A program made the position numbers and the translations under genes. Of a DNA stretch of 64,000 bases, positions 2,307 through 46,077 are shown one piece after another (the first letter of the stretch is position 1; each line of letters starts with the position of its first letter). Where the stretch lies: positions 1,602 through 65,601 of the forward strand of contig PKEU01000137.1 of NCBI GenBank assembly GCA_002919195.1, in the 5' to 3' direction. The DNA is from a bacterium. Its GTDB lineage: Bacteria > Bacillota > Limnochordia > DTU080 > RSA5. The notes beneath the pieces were generated by a model. It was not told where the DNA came from. It saw only the letters and a program-made list of their open reading frames with translations, and made no database searches.

Positions 2307-3410
2307 TTGAACCGTGCGCGTCACTTTTTCCCTGGCAGCAATACGCCACAAGGGTTTTTCTCGTATTACGACCACATCTTGCCCCACGAAAAAGCCGAGC
2401 GGATCATCATCCTCAAGGGCGGCCCGGGCACCGGGAAATCGACACTGATGAAGCGCCTGGCCGACGACTGGGAAAGGCGCGGTCTAACGGTCGAGCATCA
2501 CCACTGCTCGGCTGATCCCGGCTCTCTGGACGCGGTGGCGCTTCCGGAGGCGGGCGTCGCCGTCGTCGACGGCACGCGGCCGCACACCATCGATCCCCGA
2601 TTTCCCGGAGCCGTCGACGAGATCGTCCACCTGGGCGAATACTGGGACGAAGAAGGCATCCGCCGCCACCGCGACGAGATCGCGGCTTTGAGCGCCCTTT
2701 CGAGCCAGGCCTACCAGCGGGCTTACCGGTACCTGGCCGCCTCCCGCCTCGTCTACGAAGAGGTGGTGGCCATCCATTCCCGGGCCTTGGACCTGGGCCG
2801 CCTCAACCAGATGGCGCAAGCGCTCATCGCCCGGTGCCTCTCGACGCGGCCCGCCGCGGCAGTACCCGGCCCCGTCCGGCGACTCTTTGCCAGCGCGATC
2901 ACGCCCCGCGGGCACGTCCACTTCGTCGACCGCCTGGCCGCCGGTGCGAGCCGCGTGGTCGTGATCCAAGGTCCGCCGGGCACGGGGAAGTCCACCCTCG
3001 TCGAAAAGCTCGCGCAAGAAGCGAGTCGTCAGGGGATCGCTGTCGAGTGCTTTCACTCCCCGTACGATCCCGTCCGGGTCGACCACCTCGTGGCGCCTGA
3101 GCTCGACCTCGCCGTCATCACTTCCGCTCCTCCCTACCTTTGGGCGGGAAGCGCTGAAGAGGTGGTCGACACGCGCGAAGCGCTCTTGGAAGAAAGGCTG
3201 CAGCCCCACCGGGAGGAACTGAAAGAGGCGGAGCAACAGGCGCTCCGCCTCCTGGAGATAGCGATCCGCTCGCTCGCGCAGGCCAAGGCGTACCACGACC
3301 AGCTCGAGCAATACTACGTACCCCACATGGATTTTCCCGCCATGGAAGAACTCTACCAGCGGTTGCGGCGCAAGCTGGAGGCGCACCTCGACAGGCTCGT
3401 CACGCCGTAG
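2307..3410 (+). CDS. Uncharacterised P-loop NTPase with two Walker A motifs (PRK06851-like tandem ATPase).
   Basis: 367 aa containing GGPGTGKSTLMK and GPPGTGKSTLVEK motifs. The N-terminal HFFPGSNTPQGFFSYYD segment fits my recollection of the conserved Firmicute 'hypothetical ATPase' family. The start codon is TTG. Confidence 0.55.
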   Translation: MNRARHFFPGSNTPQGFFSYYDHILPHEKAERIIILKGGPGTGKSTLMKRLADDWERRGLTVEHHHCSADPGSLDAVALPEAGVAVVDGTRPHTIDPRFPGAVDEIVHLGEYWDEEGIRRHRDEIAALSALSSQAYQRAYRYLAASRLVYEEVVAIHSRALDLGRLNQMAQALIARCLSTRPAAAVPGPVRRLFASAITPRGHVHFVDRLAAGASRVVVIQGPPGTGKSTLVEKLAQEASRQGIAVECFHSPYDPVRVDHLVAPELDLAVITSAPPYLWAGSAEEVVDTREALLEERLQPHREELKEAEQQALRLLEIAIRSLAQAKAYHDQLEQYYVPHMDFPAMEELYQRLRRKLEAHLDRLVTP

Positions 3411-4215
3411 CCTCAGGCGGCGTGTAGACCACGGTGCTGTTGCGCGGGATGATGAGCCGCTCCGGCCGGTCGCTGGGGAACGCTGCCGACCATTCGTGAG
3501 GATCGTAGTTGCGCTTGACAAAGCAGTCGTAGTGAGCGGGCACGGCCGTGACGAGCCCGATCTTGGTGGCCATAGCCACGGAGCCGTCGAAAAACGGGAA
3601 CTCGCCTTCCGTCGGGTGAGTCGTCAAAAAGCCGATGTGAGGTTTGAGCTCCGCGATGGGCCGGATAAGATCGTCCCGCTCGGCGAAGGTGTTGATGGGA
3701 TCTCCCGAGACGTACACCCGCACGCCGCCCGCGTCGATCACGTAACCCAGGTGGGTGACGTCCGGAGGCGCGATGCCTCGTTCCGGGTCCCCTTCCGGGG
3801 GTTTGGCGTACACCGCGGCGACCTGGAGCCCGTCCAGCTCCAGCCGGTCGCCTGCGCGTACCGTGATCGTCCTCTCTTGGGGGATCCCCGCCTCCACCAT
3901 CGCTTGCACGCTTTCGACGGGCCCGGCAAAGCGCGCCTTGGGCCAGGCGTCGCGAATCCGGAGCAAGGACTCGATGCAGGTGTGGTCGCTGTGGTTGTGG
4001 GTGAGCAGCACCCAGTCGGTCCGCACCTCCGCCTCGTCCACCGGCGGCTCGGCATGAATGTATTTCTCGGGCGGCCGCTGGCGGGGAAAGTACGGGTCGA
4101 TCATCACGATGGTCCCCTTCGCGTCTTTGAGCGCGTAGGAACTCTGCTCAAACCAGTGAATCGCGACGGAACCCGGGTTGACCGTCGCGGCTTCGATGGC
4201 GTGCATCGGCATCAT
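3400..4215 (-). CDS. MBL-fold metal-dependent hydrolase.
   Basis: 271 aa with the LLTHNHSDH (HxHxDH) metallo-beta-lactamase motif. Confidence 0.7.
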   Translation of the reverse strand: MMPMHAIEAATVNPGSVAIHWFEQSSYALKDAKGTIVMIDPYFPRQRPPEKYIHAEPPVDEAEVRTDWVLLTHNHSDHTCIESLLRIRDAWPKARFAGPVESVQAMVEAGIPQERTITVRAGDRLELDGLQVAAVYAKPPEGDPERGIAPPDVTHLGYVIDAGGVRVYVSGDPINTFAERDDLIRPIAELKPHIGFLTTHPTEGEFPFFDGSVAMATKIGLVTAVPAHYDCFVKRNYDPHEWSAAFPSDRPERLIIPRNSTVVYTPPEATA

Positions 4216-4242
4216 CCTCCTCGACGTTGATCTGCTGCCGGC

Positions 4243-5622
4243 TCAAGACTTTAGACCGTCACGGGCAGCCTCCTGCCAAAAGAGCGCGACCGCCTCCCGG
4301 GCGACGCGGAAGGTCTCGACGCTGAAGCGCTCGTTAGGCGCGTGGGCATTGCTGTCAGGGTCGGCAAAGCCCATGAGGACGCACGGGACGCGAAGGAGCC
4401 GGTCGAAGCTTTCGACCACAGGGATCGAGCCCCCCGTGGGCGCGAGGGCCACGTCCTTTCCAAAGGTCCTTTGCAGGGCCCGGATCGCGGCCTGGAGAGC
4501 CGGGTGCTCGAGGTCGGCCTTCCAAGGCCGGGCACCATGCCCCGGCGTCACTTCGACGCGGGCGTAGGGCGGGCAAAGGCGCTGGAAGTGGGCGGTCAAG
4601 AGGCGGACCACCTCCTCGGGGTCTTGGCCGGCCACCAAGCGGCACGTGATCTTCGCGTGGGCCTCGCGGGGGATCACGGTCTTGGACCCCTCGCCCAAAA
4701 AGCCGCCCCACATGCCGTTGACCTCAAAGGTGGGCCGGACGGTCATCCGCTCAAAAGGCGTGTAGCCCGGCTCCCCGTCCCACCCGCCGAGCTCGAGCCG
4801 CTCAAGGAGCTCCTTTTCATTAAACGGCAGAGCGGCGTAGGCTTGCCGTTCCCGGGGCGTCGGCTCGATCACCCGGTCGTAAAAGCCGGGCACTGCGACG
4901 CGCCCCTGATCGTCCTTGCTCGCCGCGATCAACTGGGCCAGGACCTGCAGCGCATTGGGTGCAGCCCCGCCGTAGAGCCCTGAGTGGAGATCGGTCGCCG
5001 CCGTCGTCACGTGAAGCTCCACCGCGGCGATCCCCCTCAGCCCGGTGCACAAGGTGGGAAGGCCCGGTGCAAACATCGATGTGTCGGAGATAACGACAAA
5101 ATCGGCCGAAACCAAGTCGGGCCGCTCCTGCAAGAACGGCTCGAGGCTGGGCGAGCCCACCTCCTCTTCCCCTTCGATCAACACCCGCACGTTGACGGGA
5201 AGTTCCCCGTAGCAAGCGAGCAGCGCTCCCAAGGCGGCAAGATGCACCATCACCTGCCCCTTGTCGTCGCTAGCTCCCCGCGCGTAGATCCGCCCCTGCC
5301 GGACCTCGGGTTCGAAAGGCGGCGACTCCCAAAGATCGAGCGGGTCGACAGGCTGGACGTCGTAGTGGCCGTAGATCAGCGCCGTAGGCTTGTTGGCGTC
5401 TCGAATCCAATCGGCGTAGACAATCGGATGCCCAGGTGTCTCGATGACTTGGACATTTTCCAATCCCACCCGGCGCATGGCCGCGGCCAGCCACTCCGCC
5501 GCCCGGTGCATGTCCGCCCGGTGCTCCCTCAACGCACTGACGCTCGGGATGCGAAGAAACTCGATGAGGTCCGAAAGATCTTGCTCAAAGCGAGAGGCGA
5601 GTTGCTCTTGGAGTGAAGACAT
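4243..5622 (-). CDS. M20 family metallopeptidase (dipeptidase/ArgE-DapE-like).
   Basis: 459 aa. It carries the YGHYDVQP and ARGASDDKGQ motifs typical of M20 peptidases. Confidence 0.8.
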   Translation of the reverse strand: MSSLQEQLASRFEQDLSDLIEFLRIPSVSALREHRADMHRAAEWLAAAMRRVGLENVQVIETPGHPIVYADWIRDANKPTALIYGHYDVQPVDPLDLWESPPFEPEVRQGRIYARGASDDKGQVMVHLAALGALLACYGELPVNVRVLIEGEEEVGSPSLEPFLQERPDLVSADFVVISDTSMFAPGLPTLCTGLRGIAAVELHVTTAATDLHSGLYGGAAPNALQVLAQLIAASKDDQGRVAVPGFYDRVIEPTPRERQAYAALPFNEKELLERLELGGWDGEPGYTPFERMTVRPTFEVNGMWGGFLGEGSKTVIPREAHAKITCRLVAGQDPEEVVRLLTAHFQRLCPPYARVEVTPGHGARPWKADLEHPALQAAIRALQRTFGKDVALAPTGGSIPVVESFDRLLRVPCVLMGFADPDSNAHAPNERFSVETFRVAREAVALFWQEAARDGLKS

Positions 5623-9659: not shown

Positions 9660-10304
9660 GTGTGTGCCGTCGCGTCCTTGGGAGGCTTGGTCTTGCTCGC
9701 CCGGGCGACCGGCGCGCTTGAGCTCTTGTCCCAAGACAACGTCGAGGCGGTCGCAGCGAGCCTGCGCGCGTACGCCCCTTGGACCCCTTTGGTGAGCCTA
9801 GCGCTGTTGATCTTGGAGACCGTCATCCCTCCCTTGCCCGCCTGGCCGATCTTGGTCGCGAACGCCGCGATCTACGGCATTTGGGGCGGCATCGCGCTCT
9901 CGTGGCTCGGCGGCCTCTTGGGCGCGGTGGCCGCCTTTTGGCTCGCACGCTCCTTTGGGCGCTCGTACGTGGAGCGATGGATCCGAAGCGAACACTGGGA
10001 GACAATCGACAAGATCAGCCGGGAAAAGGGGTTTTACATCCTCTTGATCGCCCGCGTCTTTCCCGTCACCTCGGTCGACGTCTTGAGCTTCCTTGCCGGC
10101 CTCAGCGCGATCAGCTTTGGGCGGTTTCTCCTGGCCACCGCCCTGGGCCTATTCCCCGGAGTCGCCCTCTACACCCTCTTCGCGCATGACCTCGTCGTGA
10201 CCCGGACGGTGACCGCCCGGCTGGCCTTGAGCCTCTTGGCCGCGCTTTTGGTGTATGCCGCCTATCGGCTCCTAAGGCGCAGGGCCTTAGGGAAGGCCAC
10301 ATGA
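9660..10304 (+). CDS. DedA/TVP38/TMEM64-family membrane protein (start uncertain).
   Basis: Multi-TM protein with the DedA-like motifs WLGGLLGAVAAFWLARSFGRSYVERWI. The track start at 9513 overlaps the methyltransferase gene. A GTG at 9660 is chosen as start; a CTG at 9633 with an upstream GGAGG is an alternative. Confidence 0.5.
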   Translation: MCAVASLGGLVLLARATGALELLSQDNVEAVAASLRAYAPWTPLVSLALLILETVIPPLPAWPILVANAAIYGIWGGIALSWLGGLLGAVAAFWLARSFGRSYVERWIRSEHWETIDKISREKGFYILLIARVFPVTSVDVLSFLAGLSAISFGRFLLATALGLFPGVALYTLFAHDLVVTRTVTARLALSLLAALLVYAAYRLLRRRALGKAT

Positions 10305-20087: not shown

Positions 20088-21131
20088 TCATCCCGGGATA
20101 TAGGTCGAGCGGCAGCGGTCGAGCACTTCCAATTGCAGCCGCACGCTCTCGGGAGTGACCATGAGCGGTTCGCCGTGGCGGATCGAACGGTACAGGTTCT
20201 CGTAGACCACCGCAGTCGGCGACTCGCCGCTGGGGTGGATCTCCTGGACTTGCCAGGGCACCTTTTCACCGGTGCCATACCGCCTCCCCGGCGCCGCGCC
20301 GGGATCGGCCTCGATCGGCGGCAAAGCTCCCTCTTCGACCCACTGCACGGTGAGGGGGTTTCCACCCTGCAGCATCCCCCGCTCACCGATCACCACCCAC
20401 GTCGGCCCGGGCACCATCGGGCAGGCGCTAAAGATCTCCACGTCGACCACCATCTCGCTCCTCTTGAGCGTCACCTTGACGTGGTCTTCGGCGTCACCCG
20501 CCGAAACCGTCCGCCGCAGATCGCAAAAGAGCTCGTCGTATTGCCCGCCCAGGAGGATGAGGGCCTGGTCGATGCGGTGCGCGCCCCAGTTGTTGAGCAT
20601 GCCTCCGCCCAGCCGCGTCAGCGTCTGCCAGTCGCGGCGGCGGTCATAGCGGTAGTTGCCGACGCGGACGAAAAAGACGCGGCCAAGGAGCCCGCTTTCA
20701 ATGATCCGCTTCACTTCCAGGAAGTCCGGGTCGGCTCGCCGGTTTTGAAAACACGTAACGAGCCTGCCTACGGCCTTGGCCTTGGCGATCATCTCATCGG
20801 CCTCAGCAGCGTTGAGGGCGAAGGGCTTTTCCACCTGGACGTGCTTGCCCGCCTCCAAAGCCTTGATCGCCAATTCCTTGTGGGTGTGCGATGGAGTCGC
20901 GATCACCACCAACTCGACCTCGTCGTCCGCGAAAAGCTCCTCGGGCGTCGCGTAGGCGCGGCGCACGCCCCGGGTCTCAACGGCCTCGTCCCTCCGCTCT
21001 TTGAGCGGATCGGCGACGGCCACCAGCTCAAAGCGATCCGACGCTGCCAAATAGGCGCAGTGGATGTCCCATCCGCTGCGGCCCAGTCCTACGACGCCTG
21101 CTTTGACGGGAGTTAAATCGTGGCTTGCCAT
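20088..21131 (-). CDS. Gfo/Idh/MocA-family oxidoreductase.
   Basis: N-terminal GVVGLGRSG Rossmann motif and an EKP motif, followed by the C-terminal domain. Confidence 0.8.
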   Translation of the reverse strand: MASHDLTPVKAGVVGLGRSGWDIHCAYLAASDRFELVAVADPLKERRDEAVETRGVRRAYATPEELFADDEVELVVIATPSHTHKELAIKALEAGKHVQVEKPFALNAAEADEMIAKAKAVGRLVTCFQNRRADPDFLEVKRIIESGLLGRVFFVRVGNYRYDRRRDWQTLTRLGGGMLNNWGAHRIDQALILLGGQYDELFCDLRRTVSAGDAEDHVKVTLKRSEMVVDVEIFSACPMVPGPTWVVIGERGMLQGGNPLTVQWVEEGALPPIEADPGAAPGRRYGTGEKVPWQVQEIHPSGESPTAVVYENLYRSIRHGEPLMVTPESVRLQLEVLDRCRSTYIPG

Positions 21132-21149
21132 CGGAAAAAGCAGCTCCTC

Positions 21150-22316
21150 TCAGATCGTCTCTGCCAGTCTCCAGATGCTAAACTCCTTGTGCCCAAAAAG
21201 CTCGGCTGCAGCCGGCTTTCCGTTCGCCACCGCGAGGACCTGGTCGAAGATCTCCCGGCCGACGCTCTCCAGGGTGCCTTTTCCTTCGAGGATCACGCCC
21301 GCGTCCACATCGATGTGCTGCGGCATGCGCCGGTAGATCCGGGAGTTGGTGCTCACCTTGATCACCGGGGCGATGGGCGAGCCGGTGGGCGAGCCTCTCC
21401 CTGTCGTAAAGACCACGATTTGGGCCCCGCCGGCCGTCATCCCGGTGACCGAATCCACGTCGTAACCGGGCGTGTCCATAAAGACGAGCCCCCGCTCTTT
21501 CGGCCGGTCGGCGTACCGCACGACCTCCATCAGGGGCGTGCTGCCTCCCTTTTTGATGCACCCCAGGCTCTTCTCGTCCAGGGTCGTGAGCCCACCTTTC
21601 ACGTTGCCGGGAGACGGGTTTGCCGAGCGGATGTCGGTGCCGGTCGCGAGCATCCGGTTTTCGTAGGCGGCGATGATGTCCAGGAAAGCCTTGGCCACCT
21701 GGGGGCTGATGGCCCGCGCCGCCAAGATGTGCTCGGCGCCGATGGCCTCCGTGGTCTCCGAAAGGATGACGGTCCCGCCGTACCCGACGATGATGTCCGA
21801 GGCGACTCCCAGAGCCGGGTTGGCCGTCACCCCGGACCATGCGTCGGAACCGCCGCACTCAAGGCCGACGATCAGCTCCGACACCTTGGCGGGCATCCGG
21901 GGGATGGACTCGGCCTCCGCAAGCTGCCGCCGCAGCCACGCAGCCGCCTCCTCGACAAACGCCGCGACGCTGGGCGCCTCTTCCAGGATCAAGGCGTGGG
22001 CGGTGCGCCCCCGGGCCCTCACCCTTTCGGCCAGCTCCAGCGCGGTCTCTTGCTCGCCCCCAAGGCCGACAAAGAGCGCCGCCGCGACATTGGGATTCGC
22101 GGCGTTACCAGCCAGCGTCCGGAGCGTCTGTTCCCTATCTTCGGGAAACTGCGCATAGCCGTGGTGATGCACCACGGGGACGACGCCCGCCGCCGCGTCC
22201 GCAATCCGCTGCACGATGGTCGCCGCCTCGGCGACGCTGTTCATCACCACCACGTGGTTGCGCACGCCCACGGTCCCGTCAGCGCGCCGGTACCCCATAA
22301 ACTCAGGCTCAGCCAT
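21150..22316 (-). CDS. UxaA-family hydrolyase, large (C-terminal) subunit (altronate/galactarate dehydratase-like).
   Basis: Homologous to the C-terminal part of altronate dehydratase. Its ATG overlaps the stop of the upstream SAF-domain small subunit (ATGGCTGA). Confidence 0.7.
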   Translation of the reverse strand: MAEPEFMGYRRADGTVGVRNHVVVMNSVAEAATIVQRIADAAAGVVPVVHHHGYAQFPEDREQTLRTLAGNAANPNVAAALFVGLGGEQETALELAERVRARGRTAHALILEEAPSVAAFVEEAAAWLRRQLAEAESIPRMPAKVSELIVGLECGGSDAWSGVTANPALGVASDIIVGYGGTVILSETTEAIGAEHILAARAISPQVAKAFLDIIAAYENRMLATGTDIRSANPSPGNVKGGLTTLDEKSLGCIKKGGSTPLMEVVRYADRPKERGLVFMDTPGYDVDSVTGMTAGGAQIVVFTTGRGSPTGSPIAPVIKVSTNSRIYRRMPQHIDVDAGVILEGKGTLESVGREIFDQVLAVANGKPAAAELFGHKEFSIWRLAETI

Positions 22317-22608
22317 TGACCGCCACCCCTCGCTCCTCGGGCTTGAGGCCCCGCACATTGTGGACGTGAACATGCTCACCCGGCTCGATGTCGGCCGTCG
22401 CGATCCCCATCCGCTCGCCGTACTTGATCACCGGCTCCCCCGCTCGGATCGGCCGGAGAGCGACTTTGTGCCCGTACGGAATGGCCTGCCGCGCCAGCGT
22501 CACCGGCTCCTCGCCTTCGGCTAAAAGCACCGGATCCCCGGGAGCAAGGTCCCGGACCAACACGGCCACCGAGTCGTCCGGGTGCATCCGCAAAGCGTTC
22601 ATCGACAA
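22309..22608 (-). CDS. UxaA-family hydrolyase small subunit (SAF domain).
   Basis: 99 aa with a SAF/AFP-like N-terminal domain as found in split altronate dehydratases. It is translationally coupled to the large subunit. Confidence 0.65.
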   Translation of the reverse strand: MSMNALRMHPDDSVAVLVRDLAPGDPVLLAEGEEPVTLARQAIPYGHKVALRPIRAGEPVIKYGERMGIATADIEPGEHVHVHNVRGLKPEERGVAVNG

Positions 22609-33928: not shown

Positions 33929-34912
33929 TTGCGCATCGTCATGTACGCAGACCGGCCGGCATCCTTTGGGGGCATCGAGACCCACATGGCCACACTCGCC
34001 AAGGAGCTGGCCCTTCTCGGCCAGCAAGTCACCCTGGCTTTCCCCCGCATCCTTGAGGACGGACTCTTTGCCGACGCGAAAGCCCACGGTGTGCGGGTCG
34101 TCAAAGCCGGTCCGCAGGAGGTTCAAGAGCTGGCCGCGAGCGGCAAGGTCGACGTGCTGCACGCCCACTCGGCCCGAGCCTCGCGTCTTGCCCACGCCCT
34201 CCAGCGCCGGTATCCACTGCTCACGGCGACGACGCTCCACGGCCCGGGCCAGCTTCTCCCGCCTTGGCGCCACGGCCGGACCGCCATCATCGCGGTGAGC
34301 GGCGAAATTTCGGAAAGCCTCTCGCAGCAGGGCATCCCCCACATCACGATCGAAAACGGGGTCGATTTGAAGCGCTTTCACCCCCGAGCCCCGGGACTTC
34401 GCCGGCCGCGGCCGCTGCGGATCGTCTACCTTGGACGGGTCAGCCCTTCCAAAATGCCAGGCCTTCTCGCGCTCGACCAGGCCGCCGCCTTCCGCCAGGA
34501 GGTTGACGTCCGCTACGTCGCGGACTGGGCCCCCCGGGCCCAAGAGGCGCCTTCTCCTGCGGTGGAACACGAGCTTTCGGGAGCGGATCTTGTCTTTGCC
34601 ACCGGCAGGGGCATCCGCGAGGCGATGGCCTGTGGGGCCGCCGCCGCCGTGCTGGGCGTCTTTTGGGACGGCCTGGTGACGCCCGATACAGTCTCCCGGC
34701 TCGAGTGGTGCAACTTCAGCGGCCGGGCAAGCCGCGAGCCTCCCACGGCCCGGCGCATCAGCCTCCTGTTAAGGGAGCTGCTGGCTGATCCCAAGAGGCT
34801 TGAGCAGCTCAAAACCTTTGGGGCAAGCTACGCTCGCCGCCACTGGGACGCTCGAGTCATGGCGGAAAAGACCCTTGAGGTGTATCAACGCCTTAAGCGC
34901 GAGGCCTCATAA
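33929..34912 (+). CDS. Glycosyltransferase, GT-B fold (GT4 family).
   Basis: N-terminus (M)RIVMYADRPASFGGIETHMATLAKEL, followed by a C-terminal Glycos_transf_1-like region. A TTG start is assumed at 33929. Confidence 0.65.
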   Translation: MRIVMYADRPASFGGIETHMATLAKELALLGQQVTLAFPRILEDGLFADAKAHGVRVVKAGPQEVQELAASGKVDVLHAHSARASRLAHALQRRYPLLTATTLHGPGQLLPPWRHGRTAIIAVSGEISESLSQQGIPHITIENGVDLKRFHPRAPGLRRPRPLRIVYLGRVSPSKMPGLLALDQAAAFRQEVDVRYVADWAPRAQEAPSPAVEHELSGADLVFATGRGIREAMACGAAAAVLGVFWDGLVTPDTVSRLEWCNFSGRASREPPTARRISLLLRELLADPKRLEQLKTFGASYARRHWDARVMAEKTLEVYQRLKREAS

Positions 34913-35429
34913 AGATCTGTGCGATGTGCCACTTTCCGCCGGAGCGGTACACCCCGACGCCCACTTGGGTGTATCCTGCGCTCAGGATGTTAGCCCGGTG
35001 ATCGGGGCTTTCCATCAGGGCTTGGTGGGCCGCGACGAGGCTCGTCGCCCTCGCGATGTTTTCCCCGGCCCATTTGTAGGCAACGCCCTCGCGGCGAAGC
35101 ATGTCGAAAACCGTGCCCAAAACCGGCGAGACGTGGTCAAAGTAGCCCCTTTCCGCCATGTCCCTTGCCTTTTCCCGCGCGAGCCGCACCAGCAGGGGAT
35201 CGACCGCCAGCGCCTCACGTCCCTCCGCCAGCCGCTCCTCGTTGATTTTCTGGAGAAGGTAGGCTTCCGCCTCGCTCTCCTCTATGATCTCAAGCGCCGG
35301 CGTTCCGGCTCTTGCGGCCAGGGCTTGTCCCGTGATGAGCGTCACTGCCAACAAGAGCCCCAAAACGGCCCCGATCCAGACGGACGTCGCTCTCCGGCGG
35401 AAGTTGCCTGAGTGCTGCATGATCCGCAA
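34893..35429 (-). CDS. CAP-domain (SCP/PR-1, YkwD-like) secreted protein.
   Basis: Signal/TM segment followed by a CAP domain (GYFDHVSP...WAGENIA...HRANILSAGYTQVGVGV). Confidence 0.7.
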   Translation of the reverse strand: MRIMQHSGNFRRRATSVWIGAVLGLLLAVTLITGQALAARAGTPALEIIEESEAEAYLLQKINEERLAEGREALAVDPLLVRLAREKARDMAERGYFDHVSPVLGTVFDMLRREGVAYKWAGENIARATSLVAAHQALMESPDHRANILSAGYTQVGVGVYRSGGKWHIAQIFMRPRA

Positions 35430-35572: not shown

Positions 35573-36208
35573 ATGGCACACGAAACCACCGGCGCGGCCA
35601 CCCGGGTGACGATCACTCTCGAAGGGGGCGGTCGCCTGGCCCAGGTCGCGCAAGTCCTCCAAGTGAAACTCGAAGCCCGGGACCTCCAGTGGGAACCCGT
35701 CGACCAGCAGAGGCTGGCCGTGCGGGGAGAGATCCATTCGTACCTCTACTTCCTCCGGGCGGGAAGTCGCAAGATCGAGGGCGAGGGCCTAGCCATCCCC
35801 TTTTCCCGCACCGTGAGCGTGCCAGGACTCGACCTTAGCCGGGTGGACGTCGCCGTCGAAGAGCTGGTTTCCGACCACGATTTCGATCCGGTCACGTGCG
35901 ACTTCCAGCACCGGATCCGGGTCATCGTCCGCGTGTCGGAGCGGCCTCGCCCCGAAGGCGAGACCGGCGAGCAGGGCCACCGGGACATTGCAGAGCCCAT
36001 CCCCTCCGCCCCCGCCCAACGAGACGAGATCCGCCTCTCAGAGGCGTCAGGCGAGACGCGCCTTTCCCAGGTGAGGCAAGGCCCGTCGCCCTTTCCCGAG
36101 CCCGAAGAGGAGGCCGCCCCACCCGCTCCCAGCGAGCCCCCTCCTTCGGCCGACGAGGGCCAGCGGGTCATTGTCTGGAAACCCTTTCCACCCCCCATCG
36201 ACAGTTAA
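35573..36208 (+). CDS. Hypothetical protein, possibly SPOCS/DUF3794-like, with an acidic Pro-rich tail.
   Basis: 211 aa with a beta-rich N-terminal half (LAVRGEIHSYLYFLRAGSRKIEGEGLAIPFSRTVSVPGL). The C-terminal tail is low-complexity P/E/A-rich. Confidence 0.35.
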   Translation: MAHETTGAATRVTITLEGGGRLAQVAQVLQVKLEARDLQWEPVDQQRLAVRGEIHSYLYFLRAGSRKIEGEGLAIPFSRTVSVPGLDLSRVDVAVEELVSDHDFDPVTCDFQHRIRVIVRVSERPRPEGETGEQGHRDIAEPIPSAPAQRDEIRLSEASGETRLSQVRQGPSPFPEPEEEAAPPAPSEPPPSADEGQRVIVWKPFPPPIDS

Positions 36209-36214
36209 AAACCC

Positions 36215-36855
36215 TTATGGGCGGCGGCGAAACACGGAGGTCGACGCCCAGGGCGCTTGCGGTCTTGGCGAGGTGTTCCGGGAGGGCGGCAGCAACGGCG
36301 CGCTGGCCATTTTTCGGGGCGCCGAGCGAGCGCCCCCCTCCTTTGGTTGCCCGGACACCTTGGTGGAAGGAAGTTGAGGCCCAGCGCCCGGCTGCCGGAG
36401 CGGCGTCGTCTCCGCGCCGCGCCATGCGCCGCGGGCAAAATGCTCGAACGCCGCCCAACCGCTCTTACGCTCTCTTAGACTCGGCTGTGACGGCGGCCCC
36501 GCAGCAAGCCTCTTGGGACCGTTGCTGCCGCCTTTCCCTCGCTCGCCCAGCAAGCGCTCCACATCTCTTTGGATAAAGGTGGGCGAAAACAGCCCGTGGT
36601 ACCGGACGGCGCCGTCGATCACCACGAGGGGCAGCGCAGGCCTCTGCGGCCCGCTGAGGGACTGTTGGATCGCGGGAAACTGGGCAAGATCCGCGCTCTT
36701 GACGTCGACGAAGCGGCAAGCGACGGCGTCGCCAAAGTTTTTATGGAGCCGTTTAGCCAACGAACCCGTGATCTCTTCCAGAGATCGCCCTTTGGCTCAC
36801 CCGTAGCAGAGTTTGCTCTCCTTGTCGGCGATGACGACCACTTCGACACGGTCCA
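36215..36855 (-). CDS. YuzD/DUF1462-like thioredoxin-fold protein with an in-frame UGA at the second Cys of its CxxC motif (candidate selenoprotein, CxxU).
   Basis: ATG at 36855 with RBS AAGGAG reads MDRVEVVVIADKESKLCYG-[TGA 36798..36796]-AKGRSLEEITGSLAKRLHKNFGDAVACRFVDVKSADL...PLVVIDGAVRYHGLFSPTF. This is colinear with B. subtilis YuzD as I recall it (…LVVYGAEQICASCVNMPSSKET…PLVLINGEIVGEG). The 3' end is uncertain because the frame stays open into a P/G/R-rich tail. Confidence 0.5.
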
Positions 36856-36940
36856 TGCGACATGCGCTCCTTGAAAGAGATGTTGCGGACGTGTTGCACG
36901 GACCAGTCTATGCAAGTCAAAAAGGACGGGTGTGCGGGAG

Positions 36941-37165
36941 CTAGCCGGATGAGGGGGTGGAGACGAGCGTCACGATGGTTCCCGGCTGAAGCTCGGGCAC
37001 GAGAAAATGGTCGGGATCCGTGGAGAGCAGCCGTTCAAGGCGCGCGGTGCCGTCGCCGAGCGGGGTGACCAGGACCCGGATCCCTCCCATAGAGGCCTCG
37101 ATCTGGGCGGGCTCGGCGTCGTCGGAAAAGATCTCTTCCGGTGGGATGATCGTGTATAACACCAT
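36941..37165 (-). CDS. ylzJ: YlzJ-like protein.
   Basis: 74 aa, in the conserved position downstream of tepA. Resembles B. subtilis YlzJ. Confidence 0.65.
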   Translation of the reverse strand: MVLYTIIPPEEIFSDDAEPAQIEASMGGIRVLVTPLGDGTARLERLLSTDPDHFLVPELQPGTIVTLVSTPSSG

Positions 37166-37177
37166 AGGATTCGCCCC

Positions 37178-38041
37178 TTAAACGGGCGGGAGAGGCGCCG
37201 GCGGCGGATTGGGAGGATAGCCGAAAGCAGCGCCCGCGGCCGCCGGCGCCGGCTGGTTGTTGACGGGAAAAGCAAAAGCCGGCGAGACCGGGTGTGGGAA
37301 AGAGCCCAGATACCCGCCGGTCGCCCTCTGGATTTCCCCCCGCAAGTAAGCCAGGGCTTCGGCCAGTCCCCCCACCTGGTCGATGAGCCCCACCTCGACC
37401 GCCTCGCGGCCGATCAAGACGGTGCCCACGTCGCGCACCAGCTCGCCCGTGCGAAACATGAGCTCTCTCAGTGCGCCTTCCGAAATCCGCGAGTTTTCGA
37501 CGATAAAGCGGATCACCCTGTCTTGCATCTTGTCGAGGTACTCGTAGGTCTGCGGCACGCCGATCACGAGCCCCGACAGCCGGATCGGGTGCACGGTGAC
37601 GGTCGCCGTGCTCGCAATAAACGAACGCCGGGCTGCGACGGCGATGGGCGCGCCGATGGAGTGGCCTCCGCCCAGGATGAGTGAGACGGTGGGTTTGGAA
37701 AGGCTGCGGATCATCTCGGCGATGGCAAGCCCCGCCTCGATATCGCCGCCCACGGTGTTGAGGACGACGATGAGCCCCCGGACGGCAGGGTTTTGCTCGA
37801 CCGCGACCAGTTGAGGAATCACGTGCTCGTACTTGGTGGTCTTGCTCTTGGCGGGCAAGACCACGTGCCCTTCCACCTGCCCGATGATGGGCAGGCAGTG
37901 GATGCCCCCCTCCATCCTCGGCGGGAGGTTGGATTGACCCAGCTCTTGAATCGCCTGGAGACGGGGAGATCCTTGCGGGGACACAGGCTGAGTCGATTGC
38001 TGCTGGCCCCGGTCGATCTCGGCATCGAAACCGCCGTTCAT
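37178..38041 (-). CDS. tepA: ClpP-like translocation-enhancing protein TepA.
   Basis: ClpP/crotonase fold ([10 protein letters not shown]...[19 protein letters not shown]). Its position between rnj and ylzJ matches B. subtilis. Confidence 0.8.
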
Positions 38042-38122: not shown

Positions 38123-39790
38123 CTATACTTCCATGATGATCGGCAGGATCACCGGCCGGCGCTTGGTCTTTTCGTAGAGGTGGCGCTGGAGCACGTCGCG
38201 CACCTCACTCTTGATGGGCCCCCACTCGGTGATTCCTTGGGCCGCGAGCGGCGCTAGCGCCTCATTCACGACGCCGCGCGCTTCGTCGATAAGGCTCTCC
38301 GACTCCCTCATGTACACAAAGCCGCGCGAGATGATATCGGGACCGGCCACGATCTCGCCCGTCTGCTTGTCGATGCTGACGACGACGATGAGGATGCCGT
38401 CCTGCGAGAGCTGTTGCCGATCCCTGAGGACGATGTTGCCCACATCGCCCACGCCTAGGCCGTCGACCAGCACCCTGCCGGCTTCCACCGGCGCGCCTTT
38501 CCTGATCGAATGGGGCGTAATCTCGATGCGGTCGCCGATCTCGGGGATGACGATATGTTGTTCGGGAATACCCACTTGCTTCGCGAGTTCGGCGTGAGTG
38601 GCCAGCATGCGGTACTCCCCGTGAATGGGGATGAAAAACTTGGGCCGCGTGAGGTTGAGCATCAGCTTGAGCTCCTCTTGGCTTGCGTGCCCGGAGACGT
38701 GCACCCCGCTGACGGCGTGATAGATCACTTTGGCCCCCAGCTTAAAGAGGTGGTTGATGGTCTTTCCCATCGATCGCTCGTTTCCCGGGATCGGCGTGGC
38801 CGAGATCAAGACAGTGTCGCCCCGCCCGATGGCCACCTGGCGATGCTCGTTCATCGCCATGCGCGTCAGGGCCGCCATCGGCTCGCCTTGGCTTCCCGTG
38901 GAGATGACCACGATCCTTTCAGGGGGATAGTCGTCCAGCTCGTCCACGTCGATCATCATCCCGTCGGGGATACGCAGGTACCCAAGACGCGAGGCGATGT
39001 CGACGTTTTTGACCATGCTGCGGCCGATGAAGCAGACTTTGCGGTTAAAACGGTGAGCGGCGTCGACGATCTGCTGGATCCGGTGGATGTGAGACGCGAA
39101 GGCGGCGACGACGATCCGGCCTTCCGCTTCGCGAAAGACGTCGAGGAGCGTTTCGCCGACGATCCGCTCGGACATGGTGTAGCCGGGCCGCTCCGCGTTG
39201 GTGCTGTCGGCCATCAGGCACAATAGGCCCTCTCGCCCCAGCTCCGCCAGCCGATGCAGATCGATCACTTTTCCATCGATCGGCGTGTGGTCAAATTTAA
39301 AGTCGGTCGCATACAGGATGACGCCCGCCTGAGTGGTGACGGCCATGGCGACGACGTCGGCGAGGGAGTGGTTGACGTGGATAAACTCCACGGAAAAGGA
39401 GCCGAGTTTGATCACGTCGCCGGCCTTGATCTCGTGTAAGCGGACGTCGCCTTTGAGTCCGTGCTCCTCCAACTTCGCTTCGACGAGGCCTAGGGTGAGC
39501 CGCGTGCCGTAGACCGGCACATTGAGCTGGCGCAAGATGTAAGGAAGAGCGCCGATATGGTCCTCGTGGCCGTGGCTCAGCAAGATCGCTTTGACGCGGT
39601 TTTCCCGTTCCTTGAGGTAGGAGATGTCGGGGATAACCAGGTCCACCCCCAGCATCTCCTCGTCGGGAAACATCACCCCGCAGTCGAGGACGAGGATCTC
39701 ATTCCCCTGCTCCAAGAGCCACATGTTTTTGCCGATCTCTCCGACGCCTCCAAGGGGAATGAGAGAGACTGTCGATTGAGTTTTTGCCAT
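38123..39790 (-). CDS. rnj: Ribonuclease J.
   Basis: MBL domain (HGHEDHIG) plus beta-CASP and C-terminal domains. An internal ATG at 39790 (MAKTQSTVSLIPLGGVGEIGKNMW) is preferred to the track start at 39952. Confidence 0.85.
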   Translation of the reverse strand: MAKTQSTVSLIPLGGVGEIGKNMWLLEQGNEILVLDCGVMFPDEEMLGVDLVIPDISYLKERENRVKAILLSHGHEDHIGALPYILRQLNVPVYGTRLTLGLVEAKLEEHGLKGDVRLHEIKAGDVIKLGSFSVEFIHVNHSLADVVAMAVTTQAGVILYATDFKFDHTPIDGKVIDLHRLAELGREGLLCLMADSTNAERPGYTMSERIVGETLLDVFREAEGRIVVAAFASHIHRIQQIVDAAHRFNRKVCFIGRSMVKNVDIASRLGYLRIPDGMMIDVDELDDYPPERIVVISTGSQGEPMAALTRMAMNEHRQVAIGRGDTVLISATPIPGNERSMGKTINHLFKLGAKVIYHAVSGVHVSGHASQEELKLMLNLTRPKFFIPIHGEYRMLATHAELAKQVGIPEQHIVIPEIGDRIEITPHSIRKGAPVEAGRVLVDGLGVGDVGNIVLRDRQQLSQDGILIVVVSIDKQTGEIVAGPDIISRGFVYMRESESLIDEARGVVNEALAPLAAQGITEWGPIKSEVRDVLQRHLYEKTKRRPVILPIIMEV

Positions 39791-39941
39791 GATGCGGTCA
39801 AGACACCTCCAAGGCGCGTCCGCTCCGGCCCCGGCGGCCTGGGCACGGGCGCGAGCGCCGTACTCGGTCACAAAGTCGCTCCGTCGCCATGGCCTCGCGG
39901 CAATGCGAGCGAAAGAAACCCGAACCAGCACATTATCAATG

Positions 39942-39969
39942 ATTATACTCAACGCCGCGCAAAAGTGAA
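39942..39969 (-). promoter_or_regulatory. Sigma-A-type promoter candidate for rnj (TTCACT-N16-TATAAT).
   Basis: A perfect TATAAT sits on the minus strand (plus-strand attata, 39942-39947). The -35 is TTCACT, giving a ~150-nt leader to rnj. Confidence 0.35.
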
Positions 39970-40004
39970 AGCGAAAGGCCCCGTCGAAAAGACGACGGGA
40001 CCCC
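39961..40004 (-). terminator. Intrinsic terminator after dapA.
   Basis: On the minus strand: GGGGTCCCGTCG-tctttt-CGACGGGGCC followed by the U-rich tttcgctttcactttt. Confidence 0.5.
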
Positions 40005-40010
40005 AGGTCT

Positions 40011-40907
40011 TTACCGAGCTGCCGGCTGGATCAACCCGTACCGCTCTAGTGTTTGTTGGATGCGCTCCTTTTCCGCTGGCGTCGGCTCCACCAGGGGGAG
40101 GCGGAACGGGCCCATGTCCATCCCCAAGAGGCTCATCGCCCACTTGACCGGTATCGGGTTGGTCGTCACAAACATCGCCTTAAAGACCGGCATCAGCTTT
40201 TGATGGAGCTCGGTCGCTTCGGCGGTCCTTCCTTCCTTGAAAGCCCGGATCATCGCTTTGATGTCGTCGCCCACCACGTGGCTCGCGACGCTCACCACGC
40301 CCACGGCGCCCAGGCTCAGCATGGGCAGGGTCAGGCTGTCCTCGCCGCTGTAGATGGCAAAGCTCTCGGGCGTCGAGCGGCGAAGCTGCGTCACTTGCTC
40401 CATGTCGCCCGCAGCCTCTTTGATCGCGACGACGTTGGGAAGAAGCGCCAAACGGGCCACGGTCTCGACCTCGAGATTGCGGCCGGTGCGGGACGGGACG
40501 TTGTAGAGCATCACGGGGAGGCGGGTCGCCTCGGCGATCGCGCGAAAATGCCGGTAGAGGCCTTCTTGCGGAGGCCGGTTGTAATAGGGCACCACCAGCA
40601 TGACGCCGTGGACCCCCACCCCCTCAGCCCGCCGGGTGAGCTCGATGCTTTCCCGGGTGTCGTAGGTGCCTGTCCCGGCGATCACCTTTGCCCGGTCCCC
40701 CACGGCTTGCATCACCGCTTCAAAGAGGCCCACCTTTTCGTCGGCGTCTAGGGTGGGCGACTCGCCCGTGGTGCCGCAGACCACCACCCCGTCGGAGCCG
40801 TGGTGGACCAGGTACTCGGCCAGCTTTGCCGCCTTGTCGAAATCGACTGCGCCGTCTTGGCGCATCGGCGTCACCATCGCGGTCAGCAGTTCTCCAAAGG
40901 GGGTCAT
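40011..40907 (-). CDS. dapA: 4-hydroxy-tetrahydrodipicolinate synthase.
   Basis: N-terminus MTPFGELLTAMVTP, DHDS family. The catalytic Lys is in the IKEAAGD context. The RBS AGGAGGG lies 7 nt before ATG 40907. Confidence 0.85.
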   Translation of the reverse strand: MTPFGELLTAMVTPMRQDGAVDFDKAAKLAEYLVHHGSDGVVVCGTTGESPTLDADEKVGLFEAVMQAVGDRAKVIAGTGTYDTRESIELTRRAEGVGVHGVMLVVPYYNRPPQEGLYRHFRAIAEATRLPVMLYNVPSRTGRNLEVETVARLALLPNVVAIKEAAGDMEQVTQLRRSTPESFAIYSGEDSLTLPMLSLGAVGVVSVASHVVGDDIKAMIRAFKEGRTAEATELHQKLMPVFKAMFVTTNPIPVKWAMSLLGMDMGPFRLPLVEPTPAEKERIQQTLERYGLIQPAAR

Positions 40908-40947
40908 CTCGATTCCCTCCTGAGCTTGGCAAGTCCGACTTCCCAAC

Positions 40948-42171
40948 TCATGATTTGCCCAACGCAAACTCCCGGTGCAGGGCCGAGACAGCTTTCGAAA
41001 CCTCTTCCTCCCGGATGAGACAAGAGATGTTCGCGTGAGAGTCAGTCGTCTGCAAAATCTCGATCCCGGCCTGGTGCAGGGCTCTTGCGATCTTCGCCAT
41101 CACACCTGGAACGCCGTGCATCCCGGCGCCGACTGCGGAGACTTTGGCCAAGCCACCCGTCACCGCGTGCGGCCAACCGAGTTTCTGCAAGACAGCTTTC
41201 ATGCGCCCTTCGAGGTTTCCTGCCACGATAAAGGCGATGCGGTCCGGCGAAACATAAATCATGTCCGCGCTGATGCCGGCCGCCGCCAGGGCCTCAAAGA
41301 GCTGCACGGCGGCGCTGGAGTCGCCTGCCGGCGGCGAAACCACCGCCTGGCAGCGATCGACAATGTGGGCGATACCCGTCACCGGCCGGTCTTCCGGCTC
41401 GGCTTCCATGGGGTCTAGGAGGGCGTCGTCGCACACCAAGGTCCCCGGCGCATCCGACGTCGTCTGCCGGATGCGGATGGGGATCTTCCCCTTCATCGCG
41501 ATCTCCACCGCCCGGGGATGGATGATCTTGGCCCCGACGTGGGCCAGCTCGGCCACCTCCCGGTACGTCGCCCGCTCGAGGGTGACGGCCTCGGGGAAAA
41601 GCCTGGGATCTGCGGTCTTAATGCCGTCGACGTCGGTGTACACTTCGAGCGCCTCAGCGCTTAACGCCACCGCGAGCGCCGCGGCGGACGTGTCGCTCCC
41701 GCCCCGGCCCAGGGTCGTCACTTCCCCGTCTTGAGAGATCCCCTGAAAGCCTGCGATCACCGGAATTTCGCCGGCGGCCAGCGCCTCCAAAACGCGGCGG
41801 GGCTCAACTCTCAAAATGCGCGCTTCACCAAACCGCCCGTCGGTGATCAGGCCGGCCTGCGCCCCCGTCAAGGCCCGCGCGACGTGGCCGCGCCTTGTCA
41901 GAAAGCGCGAGAGGACGACCGTCGCGATCACCTCGCCGCAGGAAAGCAACAAATCCACGTCGCGCCCGTTGGCGCTTTCCCCGGCTTCTTGCACCAGTTG
42001 CAGCAACGTATCCGTCGCGTAAGGGTCGCCGGCACGGCCCATGGCGCTGACAACCACCACAGGCCGCAGCCCTTCGCTGATCGCGCGCTCGATATGCCGG
42101 GCGACGCATGCCCTCAGCTCCTCCGTCGCCACGGAGGTGCCGCCAAACTTCTGGACGACGATGCGGTCCAT
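40948..42171 (-). CDS. dapG: Aspartate kinase.
   Basis: N-terminus MDRIVVQKFGGTSVA plus C-terminal ACT domains. It lies between asd and dapA, as dapG does in B. subtilis. Confidence 0.85.
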   Translation of the reverse strand: MDRIVVQKFGGTSVATEELRACVARHIERAISEGLRPVVVVSAMGRAGDPYATDTLLQLVQEAGESANGRDVDLLLSCGEVIATVVLSRFLTRRGHVARALTGAQAGLITDGRFGEARILRVEPRRVLEALAAGEIPVIAGFQGISQDGEVTTLGRGGSDTSAAALAVALSAEALEVYTDVDGIKTADPRLFPEAVTLERATYREVAELAHVGAKIIHPRAVEIAMKGKIPIRIRQTTSDAPGTLVCDDALLDPMEAEPEDRPVTGIAHIVDRCQAVVSPPAGDSSAAVQLFEALAAAGISADMIYVSPDRIAFIVAGNLEGRMKAVLQKLGWPHAVTGGLAKVSAVGAGMHGVPGVMAKIARALHQAGIEILQTTDSHANISCLIREEEVSKAVSALHREFALGKS

Positions 42172-45803: not shown

Positions 45804-46056
45804 AAAAAGAAACGGTTGGCTGTCGAAAGCCAACCGCACGCGCCACTGCCCAGGCAGTGGTCTCTGCCACATATGAGCAGGCATAGCGCTCCGCCGTGAC
45901 CTGTGCCAATGGGCATCGGCGGCAGTCCGGAGGCTTTTCGCCCCCGGCCCAGCTTGTCCCGGTGGGCGGCGGGACAAACTTCGGCGGGATCCCCTTTCCC
46001 TCTCGGTCATCGGCTGCCCTGCCTACCCGTGAGGTACTCTTGTCACCCGCGCCTCT
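45804..46056 (-). ncRNA. Lysine riboswitch (L-box) with intrinsic terminator in the dapB leader.
   Basis: The minus-strand leader contains AGAGGCGC...CAAGAGUA...GAGAGGGAAAGGGGAUCCCGCCGAAG...GCUGGGCCG...GGUCA...GGAGCGCUAU. These match the conserved L-box blocks of the B. subtilis lysC leader as I recall them. It ends with the terminator GGTTGGCT-ttcgac-AGCCAACC + GTTTCTTTTT (45804..45837), ~35 nt before the dapB RBS. Confidence 0.75.
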
Positions 46057-46077
46057 ATGGCCCTCGCAGTCTCTCTT

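Follow-up and report, generated by a model that had tools for sequence, protein, structure and literature searches.

The stretch of DNA analyzed here, 64,000 nucleotides of contig PKEU01000137.1 from a spore-forming bacterium of the Limnochordia with a high GC content (hereafter the window), carries on its minus strand a gene that a sequence-only reading had proposed as a candidate selenoprotein gene of the YuzD/DUF1462 kind, with an in-frame TGA at the second cysteine (Cys) of a CxxC motif. This gene, which extends from 36856 to 36215, very probably encodes a selenoprotein of about 23 kDa composed of a DUF1462/YuzD-superfamily thioredoxin-fold domain with the motif Cys17-Tyr-Gly-Sec20 (Sec, selenocysteine), a disordered linker and a C-terminal motif.

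A minus-strand gene with an in-frame TGA

The complete coding sequence (36215..36856, minus strand, as are all features of the gene given below) comprises the TAA stop and 213 residues, of which Sec20 is one. Orthologs align with it over the entire domain, and thus also over the 19 residues ahead of the TGA. A Shine-Dalgarno sequence, AAGGAG, is located at 36867..36872, 10 nt 5' of the ATG start codon (36856-36854), and similar purine-rich sites are also found ahead of the inferred starts at loci L008, L009 and L011. The TGC codon of Cys17 (36806..36808), the first residue of the C-x-x-U redox motif, is followed by the in-frame TGA at codon 20 (36797..36799), which we read as Sec because it recurs across sequencing runs and lineages and is replaced by Cys in homologs. 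The first true stop is the TAA at 36217-36215. Except for the TGA, whose assignment depends on these comparisons, the Shine-Dalgarno sequence and the codons were read directly from the sequence. All of the features claimed in the sequence-only reading are present, with AAGGAG at 36872-36867, but the positions given there were one base off, the ATG starting at 36856, the TGA lying at 36799-36797 and the hairpin described below at 36786-36770.

The minus-strand translation reads MDRVEVVVIADKESKLCYG, then the TGA, then AKGRSLEEITGSLAKRLHKNFGDAVACRFVDV and further on PLVVIDGAVRYHGLFSPTFIQRDVERLLGERGKGG, followed by about 110 Pro/Gly/Arg-rich residues. It is identical to the translation reported earlier (MDRVEVVVIADKESKLCYG, the TGA, AKGRSLEEITGSL and on to RDVERLLGERGKGG). 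As was also reported, the open reading frame (ORF) track divides the gene at the TGA and opens the downstream piece at a TTG at 36760. The public gene calls of the window's gene (P0001) and of P0009 are likewise truncated, and the copy at L009 is annotated by NCBI as a truncated hypothetical protein.

Residues 1 to about 105 (36542..36856) make up the thioredoxin-fold domain, in the order β1, CxxU, α1, β2, α2, cis-Pro, β3, β4 and α3, with the cis-Pro being Pro76 within the window's LPLVV. The domain is followed by a variable, low-complexity linker rich in Pro, Gly and Arg (36254..36541), which is predicted to be disordered given the low predicted local distance difference test (pLDDT) scores of the equivalent tail in the model of homolog P0002, and by the conserved C-terminal motif PWASTSVFRRRP (36218..36253), with the consensus aromatic-[AS]-[ST]-[ST]-V-x-R-basic.

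The run of about 110 Pro/Gly/Arg-rich codons up to the stop at 36215, which had seemed odd in the sequence-only reading, proves to be genuine coding sequence that ends in a conserved motif. This tail differs in length and sequence from one lineage to another, and L009 and L016 lack it. Most of the tailed members, both Sec and Cys forms, have related endings (HFSTSVHRHKR, GFATSVIRSKG, SFSSTVHRSQG, NWATESRPAKR and AWASESRFASRS), a relationship that was judged by eye, as was the motif at the window's own C-terminal end. As far as these sequences can tell, the tail is a real part of the protein, namely a disordered linker that ends in a conserved motif, and this C-terminal motif may be a docking peptide. 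A second motif, EY[LM]RR[MLI]FA, lies mid-tail in L008, L011, P0019 and P0035. At the 3' end, the stop of the gene lies 7 nt from the end of a convergent neighboring ORF, and the two therefore do not overlap.

Conservation of the TGA and of a hairpin downstream of it

The TGA is present in all six independent SRA assemblies of the same species (L002-L007), which are about 99.5% identical to the window. Beyond this species, it occupies the same alignment column in seven further lineages, preceded by the conserved β-strand and Cys. The loci that carry it are L008 (from a Limnochordia metagenome-assembled genome, or MAG), L009 (from a Bacillota MAG), L010, L011, L013, L014, L015 and L016, the further lineages having been found by scans of genome and metagenome collections and by look-ups of N-terminally truncated database proteins. 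Domain identity to the window's protein is about 49-62% in the TGA lineages, with L010 being closer (94%). Because the neighboring RNase J, DapA and TepA of L008, L009 and L013 are 59-75% identical to those of the window, the TGA has been retained across deep divergence.

Coding conservation is found on both sides of the TGA, in the downstream domain as well as in the 19 residues before it (strand β1 and the first Cys), which align with full-length Cys homologs. The segment around the TGA reads KLCYG(TGA)AKGRSLEEIT in the window, RICYG(TGA)ERGRSLEEIT in L009, TYCYG(TGA)ERGRSLEEIT in L013, KICYG(TGA)ANGRSLEEIT in L014, RICYG(TGA)NKGRSLEEIT in L016, TCIGSG(TGA)EKGRSLEEIT in L008, GCFGSG(TGA)AKGRSLEEIT in L011 and MCYGSG(TGA)EKGRSLEEIT in L015. 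A Cys thus stands three or five residues ahead of the UGA in all eight lineages. Three of them have Cx4U (C[IFY]GSGU) instead of CxxU (L008, about 9976-9993; L011, about 790-807; L015, about 535-552), and the length of the redox loop therefore varies inside the Sec clade. The eight TGA forms group as one clade in a rough neighbor-joining tree without bootstrap.

Both Cys-containing and TGA-containing relatives, for which the sequence-only reading had proposed to look, were found. At least ten homologs (P0002-P0008, P0012, P0020 and P0022) have Cys in the column of the TGA, as expected if the stop codon falls at the second Cys of CxxC. The motif is CASC in P0002-P0006 and P0008, CATC in P0007, CSSC in P0020, CRSC in P0012 and CYGC in P0022. 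Since P0022 directly follows ylzJ, the gene that also precedes the TGA forms (see below), it is a positional Cys ortholog of the CYGU forms. In the same rough tree, Cys forms linked to a tRNA-Sec gene (selC) are the sister clade of the Sec forms, and P0022 and P0021 are basal. For one of the Cys forms, P0012 (L017, 236-697), which has CRSC and lacks a TGA, the gene finder likewise gave an N-terminally truncated call, so that short calls in this family need not mark a Sec codon.

Downstream of the TGA, we confirmed the hairpin GAUCUCU-gga-AGAGAUC that had been noted ten nt past the UGA with a G-containing loop, the one-base shift in coordinates aside. In the minimum-free-energy (MFE) fold, it is a core of the bacterial selenocysteine insertion sequence (bSECIS) type at 36770..36786, with a 7-bp stem (GAUCUCU/AGAGAUC) that begins 10 nt past the UGA and a GGA loop 17 nt past it. 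We assessed the hairpin by the four constraints on bSECIS elements given in PMC13188914, and it agrees with all four of them (7-bp stem, U-GGA-A loop, 17-nt spacing and folding energy). The folding energy is −8.1 to −12.0 kcal/mol over a 24-nt context and −6.0 to −6.6 kcal/mol for the bare 17-nt hairpin. At the DNA level, the stem at 36770-36786 is also a perfect palindrome with GATC (a Dam/MboI-type site) at both ends.

The hairpin was found in all eight TGA forms and in none of the seven Cys forms compared at the DNA level, in which it is lacking even where the peptide is still RTLEEIT. Chance does not account for the recurrence of one TGA column and one hairpin in eight lineages. All stem positions are paired across the eight TGA lineages (56 of 56), whereas only 21 of 49 are paired in the seven Cys forms. 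In every TGA lineage, the codons for RSLEEI are (C/A)G(A/G) TCT CTG GA(A/G) GAG ATC, and there are just two substitutions in the stem, both of them synonymous A-to-G changes that retain G-U wobble pairs. Four of the six hairpin columns (+4 to +9) have an invariant codon in the eight lineages, compared with none of the 21 other columns with an invariant residue (Fisher p = 8.5e-4), and the remaining two hairpin codons vary only outside the stem or in ways that preserve pairing. The fixed codons include CGA and TCT, although the genome has a GC content of about 65%. At the protein level, RSLEEIT is invariant in the Sec forms while most Cys forms have RT[LWM][ED][ED][IV]T, a contrast that points to a constraint acting on the RNA. 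The case for the hairpin is thus made of conservation, wobble-preserving changes and the difference between Sec and Cys forms, and this comparison of codons shows it to be under purifying selection.

Genomic context and alternative explanations

All TGA forms with a known upstream neighbor lie in a shared context. In the window, ylzJ (36941..37165, minus strand; Pfam YlzJ, E = 1.3e-19) is located immediately upstream across an 84-nt gap, preceded by a tepA-like gene for a ClpP-family protease (37178..38041, minus strand; Pfam CLP_protease, E = 6.5e-22) in conserved synteny and by the genes for RNase J and DapA (38123..40967, minus strand; identified with Pfam), which occur in the same order in L013 and L008. 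ylzJ also stands directly 5' of the TGA form in L002, L008, L009, L010, L011, L013, L015 and L016, and of a Cys ortholog in L024. The Sec form is the gene after ylzJ and the last in the co-directional dap/dpa cluster dapB-dpaA-dpaB-asd-dapG-dapA-rnj-tepA-ylzJ, which belongs to Limnochordia-like Bacillota. A lysine riboswitch heads this cluster both in the window (45876-46065, minus strand; 111.8 bits) and in L008 (582-781, plus strand; 78.5 bits).

On the other side of the gene lies the convergent ORF of 211 aa (35573..36208, plus strand), with a match to Pfam SipL/SPOCS that is below threshold (E = 0.0074) and with homologs at the same position in L002, L008, L009, L013 and L014. Beyond it is a CAP-domain gene (34893-35429, minus strand), which is a conserved neighbor in L002, L008, L009 and L014. 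The sub-threshold SipL-like ORF and the CAP-domain gene add a sporulation flavor to the locus, and a role of the selenoprotein linked to spore formation is a speculative possibility.

The Cys forms other than P0022 are located elsewhere than after ylzJ. In four diverged lineages, the Cys form (P0002, P0005, P0007 and P0020) has a tRNA-Sec gene on the opposite strand, 70-210 nt upstream of it. These tRNA-Sec genes (L001, 2363-2459; L020, 2693-2789; L021, 1717-1813; L022, 115-211; all minus strand) were found by ARAGORN and match Rfam RF01852 with 61-65 bits, and their presence beside relatives of the window's gene implies that organisms of this group are capable of Sec decoding. The outer flanks of the pair differ, with genes for an AXE1 esterase, an MR_MLE enzyme and NIF3 at L001, L020 and L021. 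The pairing suggests either a functional link of the family with the Sec pathway or selenium metabolism, or simply a long-conserved pair of genes.

If the gene is decoded as in the established bacterial Sec pathway, a complex of SelB, GTP and Sec-tRNA(Sec) would bind the 17-nt hairpin (36786-36770), with its GGA loop closed by a U-A pair, 10 nt past the UGA. Sec would be inserted at codon 20 (UGA, 36799-36797) and translation would continue to the TAA at 36217-36215. Given the fold, the position of the motif and the CxxC of the homologs, Sec20 at the start of helix α1 might form a reversible selenenyl-sulfide with Cys17, and in the Cx4U variants Sec would pair with the Cys five residues upstream. 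The protein would then be a thiol/selenol-disulfide oxidoreductase, analogous in function to SelW and other CxxU proteins.

Other explanations of the TGA have to be weighed against this one. It might be a recent nonsense mutation or a sequencing error in a former CxxC gene, as one base change turns TGC or TGT into TGA and a single two-copy inverted repeat in one genome could arise by chance. However, the occurrence of the same TGA in six runs and seven other diverged lineages excludes this alternative, which the sequence-only reading had raised, and the intact frame, domain and C-terminal motif downstream, together with hairpin codons that have stayed fixed where all other synonymous sites diverged, also contradict it. 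We therefore regard it as refuted. A further possibility is that the TGA is a genuine stop, in which case the gene would consist of a 19-residue leader peptide and a separate C-terminal domain without CxxC that is translated from an internal start, e.g. the TTG at 36760, with the hairpin acting as an element of translational coupling, attenuation or mRNA stability. Gene callers annotate precisely such a downstream ORF (P0001 and P0009-P0018), and no Sec machinery was seen in the DNA searched, both of which favor this alternative. Nevertheless, full-length CxxC homologs align residue by residue with the 19 residues before the TGA, through β1 and the first Cys, whereas the internal "starts" vary between lineages and fall within helix α1, so that a domain made from them would be without β1 and the active site. 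In addition, the distance, loop and size of the hairpin suit the SECIS model, and it is confined to genes in which TGA replaces Cys. A genuine stop is thus highly improbable.

Slightly less probable still is the insertion of a standard amino acid at the UGA, be it Cys, Trp or Gly, through near-cognate or suppressor decoding. Bacteria are known to read UGA as Trp or Cys at a low level, and Sec insertion itself is deduced here from comparison of sequences. But UGA serves as a normal stop codon in this genome and terminates about half of the window's coding-like ORFs (18 of 38), so that it has not been reassigned genome-wide. Moreover, a SECIS-type hairpin under purifying selection lies exactly at the UGA, the alignment of UGA with a redox Cys is the classic signature of Sec, and tRNA-Sec genes occur at the loci of relatives. 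Two further pairs of long ORFs in the window, each pair in one frame and parted by a single TGA, were considered as selenoprotein candidates and rejected, as both consist of separate, complete and unrelated genes (an M20 peptidase and an MBL-fold hydrolase, 3400-5622; an altronate dehydratase and a Gfo/Idh/MocA oxidoreductase, 20088-22379; both on the minus strand).

Several observations weigh against the selenoprotein interpretation or limit it. No tRNA genes were found within the 64 kb of the window, and a tblastn search of 178 kb of DNA with E. coli seeds for selA, selB and selD detected none of the sel genes, a result that is uninformative rather than negative. The hairpin has no Rfam match other than noise (E ≤ 10). 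Its stem shows no double compensatory changes among the eight TGA lineages, and we therefore claim conservation rather than covariation. The monophyly of the TGA forms in the rough tree indicates one maintained origin rather than repeated independent origins. Finally, the redox function and the link to sporulation are deduced from fold, motif and neighborhood. By the standard comparative criteria, the conserved UGA, the Cys homologs and a SECIS-type hairpin that tracks the UGA strongly support the proposed CxxU selenoprotein.

A wider idea, that the family is functionally tied both to selenium or Sec metabolism and to sporulation, is one that we consider doubtful. A role in handing selenium to the Sec pathway or in sensing selenium is suggested by the Cys paralogs, since they stay head-to-head with selC in four diverged lineages despite their differing outer flanks, and the conserved C-terminal motif might dock the Sec form, as the fixed last gene of the dpaAB-tepA-ylzJ cluster, to a partner. 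If this were true, endospore formation would have its first dedicated selenoprotein, or the protein would be a factor for selenium trafficking that was missing in Bacillota.

Relationship to DUF1462/YuzD and to known selenoproteins

The homology to YuzD/DUF1462 proposed from the sequence holds as remote homology, but the window's protein is not a member of PF07315 by the Pfam threshold. It has no match to PF07315 at E ≤ 10 for the full length or at E ≤ 1 for the domain only, and since no Pfam or NCBIfam model matches the full-length protein or the domain, direct family membership was rejected. For all six Cys forms scanned (P0002, P0005-P0008 and P0020), DUF1462 is the top Pfam match but below threshold, with 12.6-18.3 bits against the gathering cutoff of 25 bits.

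An exhaustive search with a family profile retrieved 230 relatives. The profile matches the bona fide DUF1462 protein P0061 (102.6 bits on PF07315) with a whole-library E of 3e-8, and P0130 and P0132, which it also retrieved, are likewise above the Pfam threshold. Among 45 intermediate relatives, 22 match PF07315. The profile also aligns over the full length of 1xg8 (S. aureus SA0798), a strong PF07315 member, with CxxC on CxxC and LPL on YPL (E = 0.07; hhalign probability 67.6%, E = 5e-5). In an AlphaFold2 model of the Cys homolog P0002, the thioredoxin fold is predicted with confidence and CxxC lies at the β1-α1 junction; fold searches agree with this fold. The model and the 1xg8 alignment thus place an N-terminal CxxC after β1 and a cis-Pro before β3 in a thioredoxin fold, as in DUF1462. 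Because of the profile matches to bona fide DUF1462 proteins and the sub-threshold Pfam scores, the clade is best classified, at the level of sequence, within the DUF1462/YuzD superfamily, as a divergent branch that the current Pfam boundary leaves out.

Weak matches to ArsD and Thioredoxin_3 were found in a few distant relatives and were rejected as assignments; those to ArsD are sub-threshold, and none comes from the window's clade. Among the 150 best distant relatives (P0027-P0159), about 40 are N-terminally truncated gene calls that start just past the CxxC/SECIS region, and some of these could be further unrecognized Sec forms in the wider DUF1462-like superfamily.

As expected in the sequence-only reading, DUF1462/YuzD is not among the listed selenoprotein families: the 2026 catalogue, which covers 119 prokaryotic families, has no entry for it in Table 1 (PMC13188914), and NCBIfam has no matching model either. 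In NCBIfam release 20, no significant match was found for the window's protein, two other TGA-form orthologs and four Cys forms, the best match being TsoX with 13.9 bits against a cutoff of 52 bits. Literature searches for a link of DUF1462 or YuzD to selenocysteine, for selenoproteins of Limnochordia or Limnochorda, and for ylzJ together with tepA returned nothing relevant. The family appears to be new and of a well-known kind, that of the thioredoxin-fold redox selenoproteins with a standard bSECIS.

With it, the prokaryotic selenoproteome would gain a family that is now mis-annotated as a truncated hypothetical protein. DUF1462/YuzD, a domain of unknown function in Bacillus and Staphylococcus, would gain its first strong functional hint, because the exchange of Cys and Sec marks the second residue of its CxxC as catalytically redox-active. 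Two functional leads follow from the contexts described above, namely that the Sec form consistently follows tepA-ylzJ in the spore-formers' dipicolinate/diaminopimelate cluster and that the pairing of Cys paralogs with selC is conserved. The 17-nt element inside RSLEEI is, in addition, a compact case of an RNA structure that freezes both codons and peptide.

Compared with known systems, the protein is most like DUF1462/YuzD (PF07315; 1xg8) in being a small thioredoxin-fold protein of similar size, with a CxxC-type motif at β1-α1 (ICASC in 1xg8, CASC in the clade's Cys forms) that is followed by a similar helix, and with a cis-Pro motif before β3 (YPL in 1xg8, LPL in the clade). Unlike DUF1462/YuzD, the window's clade has a disordered tail that ends in a conserved motif, a signature of its own (GLFSPTFIxRD) and its own genomic contexts, either after ylzJ or adjoining selC. 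It resembles the ArsD metallochaperone (PF06953), structures of which appeared in the fold searches, as a thioredoxin-fold relative with an N-terminal Cys-rich loop, but lacks the characteristic vicinal Cys pairs and the ars operon context of ArsD. As in the thioredoxin-fold selenoproteins of the catalogue (Sec-thioredoxins and glutaredoxins; PMC13188914, Table 1), Sec replaces a redox Cys, Cys homologs exist and a standard bacterial SECIS lies immediately past the UGA. In those families, however, Sec comes first (UxxC), whereas here it comes second (CxxU, or Cx4U in three lineages), and the window's protein has no match to PF00085, PF00462 or a selenoprotein-specific NCBIfam model. The selenoprotein W-like/Rdx family (PF10262) shares the minimal thioredoxin-like fold and a CxxU in the same orientation at the β1-α1 loop. 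Although the protein has no PF10262 match at E ≤ 10 and hhalign against mouse SelW gave a probability of 0.4%, SelW-like/Rdx proteins are probably its best functional analogue.

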